A DNA stretch of 64,000 nucleotides from Escherichia coli (lineage in GTDB: Bacteria; Pseudomonadota; Gammaproteobacteria; Enterobacterales; Enterobacteriaceae), in NCBI RefSeq assembly GCF_044324785.1, contig NZ_CP172127.1, one strand, 5' to 3'. The notes under the pieces are model-generated. The model worked only from the letters and a program-made list of their open reading frames with translations, had not been told where the DNA came from and ran no database searches. Below, in pieces: positions 18,217-23,815 of the stretch. Made by a program: the position numbers and the translations under genes. Each line of letters begins with the position of its first letter. The first letter of the stretch is position 1.

Positions 18217-19374
18217 GTGACTTATTTCCGTATTAATCCTGTTCTGGCGCTGCTGCTGTTGCTGACGGCAATCGCAGCGGCGCTGCCGTTTATCAGTTAC
18301 GCGCCTAATCGTTTAGTTTCGGGTGAGGGGCGTCATCTCTGGCAGCTGTGGCCGCAAACGATCTGGATGCTGGTGGGCGTTGGTTGCGCCTGGATGACAG
18401 CCTGTTTTATTCCCGCTAAAAAAGGCAGCATTTTTGCACTCATTCTGGCGCAATTCGTCTTCGTATTGCTGGTGTGGGGAGCAGGAAAGGCGGCGACACA
18501 ACTGGCACAAAATGGCAGTGCGCTGGCGCGTACCAGCCTCGGCAGTGGTTTCTGGCTGGCTGCGGCGCTGGCATTGCTGGCCTGTAGCGATGCCATCCGC
18601 CGAATCTCCACGCATCCGCTGTGGCGCTGGTTGTTGCATATGCAGATTGCCATCATTCCGCTGTGGTTGCTGTACTCCGGCACGCTTAACGATCTCTCGC
18701 TAATGAAAGAATACGCCAACCGTCAGGATGTGTTTGACGACGCGCTGGCACAACATCTGACGTTGCTGTTTGGTGCGGTGCTGCCTGCGTTAGTGATTGG
18801 TGTGCCGTTGGGCATCTGGTGCTACTTTTCCACCGCGCGGCAGGGGGCGATTTTTTCTCTGCTCAATGTCATTCAGACCGTGCCTTCGGTGGCGCTCTTT
18901 GGCCTGTTGATTGCGCCGCTTGCCTCGCTGGTTACGGCCTTTCCGTGGCTGGGTAAGCTCGGCATAGCAGGAACCGGAATGACACCCGCACTGATTGCGC
19001 TGGTGCTCTATGCCTTGCTGCCGCTGGTGCGCGGCGTGGTAGTCGGCTTGAACCAGATCCCGCGCGATGTGCTGGAGAGCGCCAGAGCGATGGGCATGAG
19101 CGGGGCGCAGCGATTCCTGCATGTTCAGTTACCGCTGGCGTTACCGGTATTTCTGCGTAGCCTGCGGGTAGTGATGGTGCAAACCGTCGGCATGGCGGTG
19201 ATTGCGGCGTTAATCGGTGCAGGCGGTTTTGGGGCGCTGGTTTTCCAGGGGCTGCTAAGCAGCGCCATTGATTTAGTATTGCTGGGGGTGATCCCGGTAA
19301 TTGTTCTGGCGGTGCTGATCGATGCGCTGTTCGATTTGCTTATCGCACTGCTGAAGGTGAAACGTAATGATTGA
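18217..19374 (+). CDS. yehY: osmoprotectant ABC transporter permease
   Basis: 385-aa polytopic membrane ORF; gene order. Confidence 0.85.
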
Positions 19375-20293
19375 ATTTAGCCATGTCAGCAAACTGTTCG
19401 GCGCACAAAAAGCCGTTAACGATCTCAATCTCAATTTTCAGGAAGGGAGTTTTTCGGTGCTGATTGGTACATCAGGCTCCGGTAAATCCACCACTCTGAA
19501 AATGATTAACCGCCTGGTGGAGCATGACAGTGGCGTGATCCGCTTTGCCGGAGAAGAAATTCGCTCGCTGCCAGTGCTGGAGTTGCGCCGCCGGATGGGC
19601 TATGCCATTCAATCTATTGGCCTGTTTCCCCACTGGAGCGTGGCGCAAAATATTGCCACCGTGCCGCAATTACAAAAATGGTCACGGGCGCGGATCGACG
19701 ATCGTATCGACGAATTAATGGCGCTACTGGGGTTGGAGCCAAATTTGCGTGAGCGTTATCCGCATCAGCTTTCCGGTGGTCAGCAGCAACGTGTGGGAGT
19801 GGCGCGCGCACTGGCTGCCGATCCGCAAGTCTTACTGATGGATGAACCTTTTGGCGCACTGGACCCGGTAACGCGCGGCGCGTTGCAACAAGAGATGACG
19901 CGCATTCACCGTTTGCTGGGGCGCACTATTGTGCTGGTCACTCATGATATTGATGAGGCGCTACGGCTGGCAGAACATCTGGTATTGATGGATCACGGTG
20001 AAGTGGTGCAGCAGGGCAATCCGCTGACGATGCTGACTCGTCCGGCGAATGATTTTGTCCGCCAGTTTTTTGGGCATAGTGAACTGGGTGTCCGCCTGCT
20101 TTCGTTACGTAGTGTGGCGGATTACGTGCGTCGCGAAGAACGGGCAGAAGGTGAGGCACTGGCAGAAGAGATGACGCTACGCGATGCGCTCTCCCTGTTT
20201 GTCGCGCGGGGATGCGAGGTGCTGCCGGTGGTGAACACGCAGGGCCAGCCTTGCGGCACGCTGCATTTTCAGGATCTACTGGTGGAGGCGTAA
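19367..20293 (+). CDS. yehX: osmoprotectant ABC transporter ATP-binding protein
   Basis: Walker [13 protein letters not shown] signature LSGGQQQR, Walker B LLMDEP; overlaps yehY stop by 8 nt. Confidence 0.9.
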
Positions 20294-20297
20294 GCGT

Positions 20298-21029
20298 ATG
20301 AAGATGTTGCGCGATCCGCTGTTCTGGCTCATTGCTTTGTTTGTGGCACTGATTTTCTGGCTGCCTTACAGCCAGCCGCTGTTTGCTGCCTTGTTCCCAC
20401 AACTGCCACGACCCGTTTATCAGCAGGAAAGCTTTGCAGCTCTGGCACTGGCTCATTTCTGGCTGGTGGGAATTTCGAGTTTGTTTGCGGTGATCATTGG
20501 CACTGGTGCAGGAATTATTGTTACTCGCCCGTGGGGCGCGGAATTTCGCCCACTGGTGGAAACTATTGCCGCCGTTGGGCAGACTTTTCCGCCCGTCGCG
20601 GTGCTGGCGATTGCCGTTCCGGTGATTGGGTTTGGTCTGCAACCCGCGATTATCGCCTTGATCCTTTACGGTGTGCTGCCCGTCCTACAGGCGACACTTG
20701 CCGGGCTGGGAGCGATTGATGCCAGCGTGACAGAAGTTGCGAAAGGTATGGGAATGAGTCGAGGTCAGCGACTGCGTAAGGTCGAGCTACCGCTGGCGGC
20801 TCCGGTGATTCTGGCGGGCGTGCGAACTTCGGTGATTATCAACATTGGTACGGCGACGATCGCCTCAACGGTAGGGGCCAGCACGCTGGGTATGCCCATC
20901 ATCATCGGGCTTAGCGGATTTAATACCGCGTATGTGATCCAGGGGGCGTTACTGGTGGCACTGGCGGCGATCATTGCAGACCGCCTGTTTGAAAGGCTGG
21001 TGCAGGCGCTTAGCCAGCACGCAAAATAA
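20298..21029 (+). CDS. yehW: osmoprotectant ABC transporter permease
   Basis: 243-aa membrane ORF directly after yehX. Confidence 0.85.
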
Positions 21030-21117
21030 AGGTATAACCTGCGAGCATGACGCCACCAATTCCGCCTAACGCCATAAACAGGAACAGGGCGATGACCCCA
21101 ATTTTAGCTATGCGCAT
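21010..21117 (-). CDS. yohO: small membrane protein YohO (35 aa)
   Basis: Manual translation of minus strand: [35 protein letters not shown]; 3' end overlaps yehW 3' end by 20 nt. Confidence 0.8.
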
Positions 21118-21176
21118 AATGCACTCCTTATGTTAACGAAAGGATTGTACAGTAAAGCGCATTTGTTAACGAATCA

Positions 21177-21908
21177 TTAAATGCCGAGTGGGAAAATATC
21201 ATGGCCTTGTTCCTGCCAACTGGTAAGTTGCTGCTGTTGGGCAGAGGTTCGATTTTCACCGCACCACACCAGCAATGTACGGCCTTCGAACAGTTCAGGG
21301 CGTAGTTGATTGAGCGAGTGGGCGAGGACATCAATGCGCCATCCTTGTTGACTGGCAATCCAGCCCTCCAGCCACAGACGGGTGGTATCCTGAATATTCC
21401 AGCCAACTACCAGCGCATCTTTACCCTGTTTTTTACGCGCCGAAGCCAGACAAATGGCGATGTAGTTGATCAGTACGCCGTCGAGGATCGCCAGCAGCGC
21501 CTGGAGAGTCGGTTGTTGGCACTGAAGTCGTCGGCGCAGAGGAATAAACAGATGTGTGGTGAGCGTCTGGGCGGGGTAATCCTGACCGCGCTCTTTGATC
21601 CACGTTCGCAGGCTATGCAGATTGCCGCTTTGCAGGTAAGTCAGTAATGTTTCTTGCTGATCGCGCCAGCCGTTCTGCACATCAACATTTTCATTACTGA
21701 GCAGCATTTTAACTTTGCTAACCTGCACGCCGTTGTCGATCCAGCGTTTGATCTCGCGGATCCGGTCAATATCGGCATCATTGAACAGCCGATGACCGCC
21801 GTCTGTCCGTTGCGGTTTCAGCAATCCGTAACGCCTCTGCCACGCGCGTAACGTGACAGGGTTAATATCACAAAGCAACGCCACTTCACCAATTGTGTAA
21901 AGCGCCAT
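21177..21908 (-). CDS. mlrA: MerR-family transcriptional regulator MlrA (curli/csgD activator)
   Basis: 243-aa ORF with N-terminal MerR HTH (YTIGEVALLCDINPVTLRAWQRRYGLL). Confidence 0.9.
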   Translation of the reverse strand: MALYTIGEVALLCDINPVTLRAWQRRYGLLKPQRTDGGHRLFNDADIDRIREIKRWIDNGVQVSKVKMLLSNENVDVQNGWRDQQETLLTYLQSGNLHSLRTWIKERGQDYPAQTLTTHLFIPLRRRLQCQQPTLQALLAILDGVLINYIAICLASARKKQGKDALVVGWNIQDTTRLWLEGWIASQQGWRIDVLAHSLNQLRPELFEGRTLLVWCGENRTSAQQQQLTSWQEQGHDIFPLGI

Positions 21909-22129
21909 CGTCTCACCCTTGCTCGCGAGGTCCCGGTTTAACTTTAGACGCAGTTTTGCGAACCAGGTAGTTTTGCCCGTTTTTTGTGCATCTATAGGGT
22001 GATTTTATTTTTGCCAGGCGATTTTGAGTGATCGTACTCACGAATTCTCATTTTTCTGCAAGAGTTCAAAGAAAGTTAAACGCAGGCAATGTATGTTACG
22101 CGTTTTAAAGGGAAGTGTGGTTTGCGGGT

Positions 22130-23815
22130 ATGTACGATTTTAATCTGGTGTTGCTGCTGCTTCAGCAGATGTGCGTTTTTTTAGTCATTGCGTGGTTAAT
22201 GAGTAAAACGCCATTATTCATACCGTTAATGCAGGTCACGGTTCGTCTGCCGCATAAATTTCTCTGCTACATCGTCTTTTCCATCTTCTGCATCATGGGC
22301 ACCTGGTTTGGGTTGCACATTGACGATTCTATTGCCAATACCCGTGCGATAGGCGCGGTAATGGGCGGCTTGCTCGGCGGTCCGGTCGTCGGTGGGCTGG
22401 TTGGTCTGACCGGCGGGTTACATCGATATTCGATGGGGGGCATGACCGCGCTAAGTTGCATGATCTCGACCATCGTTGAAGGATTGCTCGGCGGCCTGGT
22501 ACACAGCATCCTGATTCGTCGCGGGCGCACTGATAAAGTCTTTAACCCCATTACCGCCGGTGCCGTCACGTTCGTCGCTGAAATGGTGCAAATGTTGATC
22601 ATCCTGGCGATCGCCCGACCTTATGAAGATGCGGTGCGTCTGGTGAGTAATATTGCTGCGCCAATGATGGTCACCAATACCGTCGGCGCGGCGCTGTTTA
22701 TGCGTATATTGCTCGATAAACGCGCGATGTTTGAAAAATACACTTCGGCTTTTTCTGCTACTGCGCTGAAAGTGGCTGCCTCGACGGAAGGCATTTTGCG
22801 CCAGGGGTTTAACGAAGTGAACAGCATGAAAGTGGCACAGGTGCTGTATCAGGAGCTGGATATTGGTGCAGTCGCGATTACCGATCGAGAGAAATTGCTG
22901 GCCTTTACCGGAATTGGTGACGACCACCATTTACCCGGCAAACCGATTTCTTCGACTTATACCTTAAAAGCAATTGAAACCGGTGAAGTGGTCTACGCTG
23001 ATGGCAACGAAGTACCTTATCGTTGCTCTTTGCATCCGCAATGCAAACTGGGGTCGACGCTGGTAATTCCGTTGCGTGGCGAAAATCAGCGGGTGATGGG
23101 CACCATCAAATTGTATGAAGCCAAAAACCGTTTATTCAGTTCAATCAACCGCACGTTGGGTGAGGGGATTGCGCAACTGCTTTCGGCGCAGATCCTCGCC
23201 GGGCAATATGAGCGGCAAAAAGCGATGCTCACCCAGTCAGAGATCAAACTGCTTCACGCTCAGGTGAACCCCCATTTTTTGTTTAATGCGCTTAACACCA
23301 TTAAAGCGGTGATCCGTCGCGACAGCGAACAGGCCAGCCAGCTGGTGCAGTATCTTTCCACTTTTTTCCGCAAAAACTTAAAGCGGCCTTCGGAGTTTGT
23401 TACTCTCGCCGACGAAATTGAACATGTGAACGCTTATCTGCAAATTGAAAAGGCGCGCTTCCAGTCGCGGTTGCAGGTCAACATTGCTATTCCGCAAGAA
23501 TTATCCCAGCAGCAATTGCCCGCGTTTACCCTGCAACCGATAGTGGAAAACGCTATTAAACATGGGACATCACAACTGCTCGATACAGGGCGAGTGGCAA
23601 TCAGCGCCCGACGTGAGGGGCAACATTTGATGCTGGAGATCGAAGACAATGCCGGTTTGTATCAACCGGTAACCAATGCCAGTGGGCTGGGGATGAATCT
23701 GGTGGATAAGCGTTTACGTGAACGGTTTGGCGATGACTATGGGATAAGCGTCGCCTGTGAGCCTGATAGTTACACCCGAATAACGTTACGACTACCATGG
23801 AGGGACGAGGCATGA
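22130..23815 (+). CDS. btsS: pyruvate-sensing sensor histidine kinase (LytS family)
   Basis: 561 aa from ATG at 22130; 5TM-LytS N-terminus, GAF, His-kinase HATPase C-terminus. Confidence 0.9.

Follow-up and report, generated by a model that had tools for sequence, protein, structure and literature searches.

yohO, a conserved small membrane protein gene that overlaps yehW tail-to-tail in Escherichia coli and its relatives

yohO is very probably a real, translated, single-copy core gene of Escherichia coli and of most Enterobacteriaceae, and its product is essentially one transmembrane helix; this reading gives the best explanation overall. The gene, its peptide, the overlap of its coding sequence with that of yehW and the overlap of the two transcripts are all already annotated or published. 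YohO is a conserved and expressed small membrane protein of E. coli, and the comparative results described here narrow where to look for its function. Of 80 related species, 78 retain the overlap with yehW; the gene appears to carry a promoter block of its own that is independent of mlrA, it is linked to yehW more than to mlrA but survives without its neighbors, and the core of the peptide (residues 15-28) is invariant on all sides of the helix. Taken together, these features point to a role at the level of the membrane protein that is not strictly tied to either neighbor.

The yohO locus

We studied yohO in a stretch of 64,000 nt of E. coli DNA (NCBI RefSeq assembly GCF_044324785.1, contig NZ_CP172127.1), which we call the window. 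The gene lies on the minus strand at positions 21010-21117 and consists of 35 codons and a TAA stop codon. It runs tail-to-tail into yehW (20298-21029, plus strand), the permease gene that is the last in the osmF-yehYXW operon of a glycine betaine ABC transporter (Pfam BPD_transp_1, E = 2e-27; RefSeq). The reading frames share 20 nt on opposite strands (21010-21029), including both stop codons, that of yehW being the TAA at 21027-21029; the segment in which both genes have sense codons is 14 nt long (21013-21026). The upstream neighbor on the strand of yohO is mlrA (21177-21908, minus strand), which encodes a MerR-type regulator (NCBIfam NF011617, 550 bits) and ends 59 nt before the yohO ATG. 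A Shine-Dalgarno sequence, AAGGAG, can be read at 21124-21129 (minus strand), 6 nt 5' of the ATG.

A lone open reading frame of 35 codons is not above chance, and dozens of such frames are present in the list of open reading frames of the window. A short frame is not significant by itself; what supports yohO is its annotation, its membership of a family and the comparison between species. The first-pass annotation, made from the letters of the window, had named the gene and given it a peptide of 35 amino acids, and both the name and the peptide are borne out by the translation, by RefSeq and by the NCBIfam equivalog NF010225, which YohO matches over the whole 35-residue profile (residues 1-35 on positions 1-35) with 80.1 bits, the cut-off being 57. 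Homologues of YohO carry the precomputed Pfam label PF27791 (UPF0387_membrane). The local copy of Pfam, which does not contain PF27791, assigns YohO to no family: it returns just chance-level matches to B12D and DUF1294, and no glycine-zipper family. No PADLOC model and no PDB chain matches YohO.

In K-12 MG1655, yohO is b4542 at 2215657-2215764 and yehW lies on the complementary strand at 2215745-2216476, with the same 20-nt overlap (RefSeq). Of 5426 complete E. coli genomes, 5423 contain a match to an 801-nt query across yehW, yohO and mlrA, and the RefSeq label "yohO: protein YohO" stands beneath the match, between yehW and mlrA. The outcome is the same with a 221-nt query centered on yohO, and each of 30 matches taken from along the ranking carries the annotation.

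The YohO protein of the window is identical to that of K-12, and yohO together with the 59-nt spacer has 0 mismatches over 167 nt, while the flanking genes are 96.8-98.4% identical to K-12. In other terms, 21010-21176 is unchanged, while mlrA, yehW, yehX and btsS (flanks within 19367-23274) differ by 1.6-3.2%. At the flanking rate about 4 differences would be expected in yohO and the spacer, a small-sample hint that this segment may be under extra constraint. Among E. coli records, 2 of 5427 matches to the yehW-yohO-mlrA segment (20700-21500) fall on records classed as plasmids. In the same segment an identity of 99% or more to the window is reached by just 107 of 5425 E. coli records, the others being 95-99% identical; the window thus appears to come from a less commonly sequenced lineage of E. 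coli or to carry a recombinant segment here.

Conservation of the gene and of the overlap

The locus was scanned with YehW as the anchor in one genome per species, which yielded 80 loci, a sample that is selected on yehW. The loci come from Escherichia, Citrobacter, Salmonella, Enterobacter, Klebsiella, Kosakonia, Leclercia, Lelliottia, Buttiauxella, Cedecea, Pantoea and other genera. An intact reading frame with an ATG start, convergent to yehW and overlapping it, is found in 78 of the 80. It encodes 34 amino acids in 3 loci, 35 in 33 and 37 in 42. The overlap is mostly 26 nt (42 loci) or 20 nt (33 loci), with 17 nt in two loci and 14 nt in one. What sets the 26-nt class apart is an insertion of 6 nt within the overlap, through which both proteins gain two residues, and the overlap sequence is nearly invariant within each length class. 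A Shine-Dalgarno sequence of the AAGGAG, AGGAG, GGAG or AAGGA type precedes 75 of the 78 orthologous genes, and mlrA ends 51-79 nt upstream in most genera. The first-pass annotation had described a 3' overlap of 20 nt with yehW; its coordinates are exact, and the overlap is the same in K-12 and in every E. coli genome sampled. Loss of the overlap in related genomes, which would have spoken against that account, is not what the 78 of 80 species display.

The two exceptions differ in kind. In one assembly of Citrobacter amalonaticus (L007, 4780-4800, minus strand), a single T inserted in a run of T residues shifts the frame of yohO; two other assemblies of this species are intact, and the frameshift is probably a homopolymer sequencing error. 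The other (L073), a more distant Enterobacterales genome, has neither yohO nor mlrA. One of the 80 loci (L079, CACSKA010000001.1) comes from a record titled "Chryseobacterium sp. 18061" and has a typical enterobacterial yehW-yohO-mlrA locus at 55% GC; the assembly is probably mislabeled or contaminated.

The pattern of substitution is that of a coding sequence. Across 78 distinct yohO sequences, the entropy at the three codon positions is 0.57, 0.20 and 1.24, the third position being 6 times as variable as the second. The yohO frame has a pooled dN/dS of about 0.15, and the other five frames give 0.34-3.3. Eleven residues are invariant among 48 distinct proteins: M1, K5, M15, A16, G19, G22, V23, M24, L25, G27 and Y28. 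The 78 loci, the dN/dS and the codon periodicity together indicate that the overlap is conserved and that the peptide is under purifying selection.

Divergent homologues and gene linkage

A profile built from 21 YohO variants, searched against 1.84 billion cluster representatives, retrieves 38 proteins, a good part of which are gene calls with frameshifts or chimeras; as judged from these matches, the family is narrow. Seven divergent members could be placed in their genomic context. Five have a yehW-like permease gene as neighbor, with a 20-nt overlap in three of them (P0036, P0021 and P0018), a 0-nt gap, that is, abutting genes, in P0037 and a gap of 11 nt in P0032. Each of these five neighbors ends an operon of the order OpuAC-permease-ABC-permease, and mlrA is absent nearby in four of the five. 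In the remaining two, the neighbor is bglX (P0028) or a NUDIX gene followed by bglX (P0016), and the 8-kb locus contains neither a yeh operon nor mlrA; both peptides retain the core GG(I/V)(S/G)G(L/V)MLVGY.

In all, yohO stands beside yehW in 78 of the 80 yehW-selected loci and in five of the seven divergent contexts, and not beside yeh genes in the two bglX lineages (L089 and L095), as seen within 8-kb loci that leave room for relocation of the operon elsewhere. The divergent contexts and the loci that have lost mlrA indicate that the linkage of yohO to yehW is tighter than that to mlrA. The seven contexts also indicate that the overlap is common but not obligatory, and that yohO can persist without either neighbor.

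Upstream sequences and promoter

An alignment of 56 distinct mlrA-yohO spacers reveals a conserved block that reads, on the yohO strand, TTCATTAACA, 14 nt, TA(T/C)AAT, 7 nt, GTTAACA(T/A)AAGGAG, about 6 nt, ATG. In the 56 enterobacterial sequences, conservation reaches 80% or more both for the TA.AAT hexamer and for the TTAACA cores. In the window, the putative -10 hexamer is TACAAT at 21144-21149 (minus strand); it is TATAAT in most genera and is picked out by its conservation. The hexamer is flanked in E. coli by a perfect direct repeat of 10 nt, TTCGTTAACA, the copies of which are 33 nt apart. The proximal copy (21131-21140, minus strand), with its conserved TTAACA core, lies at the predicted start of the 5' UTR, and the distal copy (21164-21173, minus strand) supplies a TTAACA that resembles a -35 element but lies 14 nt from the -10. 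The pair could be an operator pair, or else a -35-like element and an element of the 5' UTR. For the TTAACA repeats, sites of the MlrA, PhoP, CpxR and OmpR types were considered, and none fits convincingly. A hairpin that would pair the Shine-Dalgarno sequence (UCCUU with AAGGA) in the 5' region of yohO was also considered and dropped, the UCCUU arm not being conserved.

The block does not depend on mlrA. The whole -10 and Shine-Dalgarno block is kept in four species without mlrA at the locus, and also in Klebsiella and in a Citrobacter, where mlrA lies 199-529 nt away from the block. In Klebsiella and Pantoea, mlrA lies 228-1790 nt from yohO, and the block is absent from the Pantoea locus with mlrA 1.8 kb away (L080). 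TATAAT-like hexamers are also found 5' of divergent yohO homologues in other contexts. No canonical -35 element stands with the -10, and a scan for consensus promoters does not call the yohO promoter. From the conserved sequence we infer a separate promoter for yohO. Transcription that continues from mlrA into yohO is plausible as well, since the genes lie on the same strand and no terminator separates them, the terminator scan finding no terminator-like site in the 59-nt gap. With a promoter-like block of its own, and a presence that outlasts mlrA, yohO would not be merely an appendage of mlrA.

Two further observations concern the neighboring genes. A hairpin with a T-rich tail that resembles a terminator lies at 21872-21904 (minus strand), about 5-35 nt into the mlrA coding sequence, with a 3' end at about 21870. 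It coincides with a 3' end internal to the open reading frame at K-12 position 2214904 in the tabulated Term-seq data of Adams et al. (2021), which suggests premature termination or attenuation of mlrA. A published sigma-factor SELEX peak that is labeled as lying between yohO and yehX is actually inside yehW.

Expression and transcript overlap

Published data support translation of YohO. A preprint on sPepFinder describes it as a membrane small protein (citing Hemm, 2008) and shows Ribo-seq coverage, and a proteomics study of 2025 detects it by top-down mass spectrometry; the absence of translation, which the first-pass annotation had named as evidence against its account, is thus contradicted by two kinds of data. 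In Shigella flexneri, yohO mRNA is lower without oxygen (log2 fold change -2.96), and no FNR-dependent change is listed. A clone overexpressing yohO grew well enough for picking in a published screen. Our search of the literature, the primary Hemm papers aside, found no paper that gives YohO a function, and the supplementary tables of a SMRT-Cappable-seq study have no yohO, mlrA or yehW entries.

The Term-seq and RNA-seq data on the transcripts are from K-12 and were mapped onto the window by K-12 coordinates, yohO and its spacer being identical in the two strains. The tabulated Term-seq data list a "primary" 3' end for yohO at MG1655 2215813 (plus strand), antisense to yehW, and the corresponding term appears three times across three condition tabs (Adams et al., 2021). 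Supplementary file 2 of the same study gives a Rho termination region at 2215995 (plus strand), with a Rho score of 5.6 and a significance of 9.4e-16 (Adams et al., 2021). In the window, this 3' end falls at about 20961, 49 nt beyond the stop codon, giving yohO a 3' UTR (20961-21009, minus strand) that is antisense to the coding sequence of yehW; the Rho region maps approximately to 20779 (minus strand), about 230 nt into antisense yehW. With these 49 nt and the 20 nt that the coding sequences share, the transcription units overlap by at least about 70 nt. Of the 165 convergent excludons that ExcludonFinder (NAR, 2025) recognizes in 50% or more of 58 RNA-seq samples of MG1655, yohO-yehW is one. 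The convergent, overlapping transcription units that the first-pass annotation had proposed for this junction are hence to be found in published K-12 data.

The yohO 3' end is preceded by a hairpin, GGCGGUC-N6-GAUCGCC. The 3' UTR of yohO folds no better than shuffled sequences (z = -0.99), nor does the region downstream of yehW (z = -0.44), and for this reason we claim no intrinsic or bidirectional terminator. A terminator scan returns weak terminator-like sites alone, one of them within yohO. Downstream of its stop codon, the yohO strand is rich in C relative to G (C/G 1.0-3.2). In the relative that has neither yohO nor mlrA, yehW is followed by a canonical terminator with a GC-rich hairpin and a T-tract (L073, 4727-4775); no canonical terminator of this type is found directly after yehW in the genomes that bear yohO.

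The YohO peptide

The membrane nature that the first-pass annotation had ascribed to YohO agrees with the literature and with the peptide itself. The AF2 model, based on an alignment of 21 sequences, is one helix spanning residues 3-34 with a mean pLDDT of 90, and the Kyte-Doolittle index averaged over 21 residues reaches a maximum of 2.38 at residues 6-26. Positive charges are found at R2 and K5 near the N-terminus and at R33 near the C-terminus, which weakly favors an N-in orientation. The conserved core, residues 15-28, reads M-A-x-[GS]-G-[IV]-[GS]-G-V-M-L-x-G-Y, and small residues recur at four-residue spacing in the overlapping series G18xxxG22xxxA26 and G19xxxV23xxxG27, the second being part of the pattern M15xxxG19xxxV23xxxG27. 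Conservation of residues 15-28 is not confined to one face: the conservation moment is not significant, 2136 of 5000 shuffles reaching the observed value. Conservation all round the helix does not favor a simple one-face interaction.

Possible roles of yohO

By analogy with other small membrane proteins of E. coli, YohO may work by tight helix-helix packing in the inner membrane, a proposal to which we give about an even chance. The peptide would insert N-in in the inner membrane, and its glycine-rich helix of small residues would pack against a larger membrane protein or against other copies of YohO. The adjacent Yeh transporter comes to mind first as a candidate partner, though it cannot be the sole one, since two lineages keep yohO without an adjacent yeh operon. 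On the RNA side, the K-12 data have the yohO message ending 49 nt into antisense yehW and Rho stopping residual transcription about 230 nt in. The overlap of the coding sequences is most likely a tolerated and hard-to-reverse consequence of tight packing, with a modest antisense effect on the 3' end of yehW mRNA being possible; a dedicated regulatory device it probably is not.

Other roles can be envisaged for yohO. The possibility that the overlap matters, and not the peptide, deserves a hearing but is on the unlikely side: yohO would be transcribed as a cis-acting excludon, and convergent transcription, or the cutting of the RNA duplex by RNase III, would set the 3' end and level of osmF-yehYXW mRNA, and vice versa, with reciprocal expression of the two units. 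The message does extend at least 49 nt into antisense yehW before Rho stops the remainder, the pair belongs to the MG1655 excludome, and no intrinsic terminator belonging to yehW is seen here, as against the canonical one of the yohO-less L073. Selection on the peptide argues that a regulatory role of the transcript overlap cannot be the whole story; together with the occurrence of yohO without yehW, it argues that the protein matters in its own right, and the gaps of 0 nt in P0037 and 11 nt in P0032 argue that the overlap is not obligatory in the family. Our search of the literature found no data on reciprocal expression of yohO and yehW. An alternative that puts the weight on the protein is that YohO would be a dedicated small subunit or regulator of OsmF-YehYXW, by analogy with KdpF for KdpABC and AcrZ for AcrB, the overlap keeping the genes inherited together. 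We regard this as unlikely. Convergence with, and overlap or abutment to, a yehW-type permease gene in 78 of 80 species and in five of the seven divergent contexts, mostly without mlrA, speaks for it, as does the fact that yohO remains beside yehW where mlrA has been lost or displaced. Part of the association comes from the sampling, however, the 80 loci having been selected on yehW; the genes lie on opposite strands, so that yohO and the yeh genes are not co-transcribed, and L089 and L095 keep yohO and its core motif beside bglX with no adjacent yeh operon. A combined proposal, in which the poorly active OsmF-YehYXW transporter would have in YohO its missing small membrane subunit or regulator and the overlap with Rho-terminated antisense read-through would couple expression reciprocally, yohO transcription tuning the amount of full-length yehW mRNA, is very unlikely in our estimate.

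The upstream neighbor offers another candidate role, in which yohO would be the distal gene of an mlrA-yohO operon and would serve the MlrA/curli circuit. The shared strand, the gap of 51-79 nt in most genera and the lack of an intervening terminator are consistent with it, but the -10 and Shine-Dalgarno block is retained in the four mlrA-less species and in Klebsiella with its distant mlrA, and most divergent homologues have no mlrA nearby, which makes this role decidedly unlikely. Since YohO is small, hydrophobic and a single helix, and its gene is overlapped by an antisense transcript, it also brings to mind a type I toxin restrained by the yehW transcript, an exceedingly improbable identity for YohO. 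The gene is single-copy and core, found throughout the family and in 5423 of 5426 E. coli genomes; its antisense partner is an mRNA and not a dedicated small RNA; its Shine-Dalgarno sequence is strong and unoccluded, and its expression is detectable in normal growth; and the overexpression clone was viable in the screen, with no match in PADLOC.

Relation to known systems

The closest comparison is with YohO of K-12, the UPF0387 protein: the gene of the window is the same in sequence, position and overlap, with no difference. Type I toxin-antitoxin systems, which have a dedicated antisense RNA and a toxic peptide and are usually strain-variable or multicopy, are not matched by yohO, the toxicity of which would be putative. 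With convergent excludons, both those of the Listeria type and those of the ExcludonFinder catalogue of MG1655, yohO-yehW has in common the overlapping convergent transcripts, as judged from the published K-12 data mapped onto the window, and a 3' end inside the coding sequence of the neighbor. It differs from them in that the coding sequences themselves overlap, beyond the UTRs; mutual exclusion and dependence on RNase III are putative for this pair.

Glycine-zipper helices carry (G/A/S)xxxGxxx(G/S/T) motifs. YohO resembles such transmembrane helices at the level of the motif, and its oligomerization is putative. KdpF, AcrZ, MgtS, CydX and MgrB are small membrane proteins of E. coli that act by tight helix-helix packing. 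YohO is like them in length, in its single helix, in having its own Shine-Dalgarno sequence and in a conservation restricted to enterobacteria, and like KdpF and CydX it is encoded beside a transporter operon. In contrast to these proteins, with which it has no sequence similarity, YohO is encoded on the strand opposite to the transporter genes and outside their operon, and yohO persists where the transporter operon is not adjacent.
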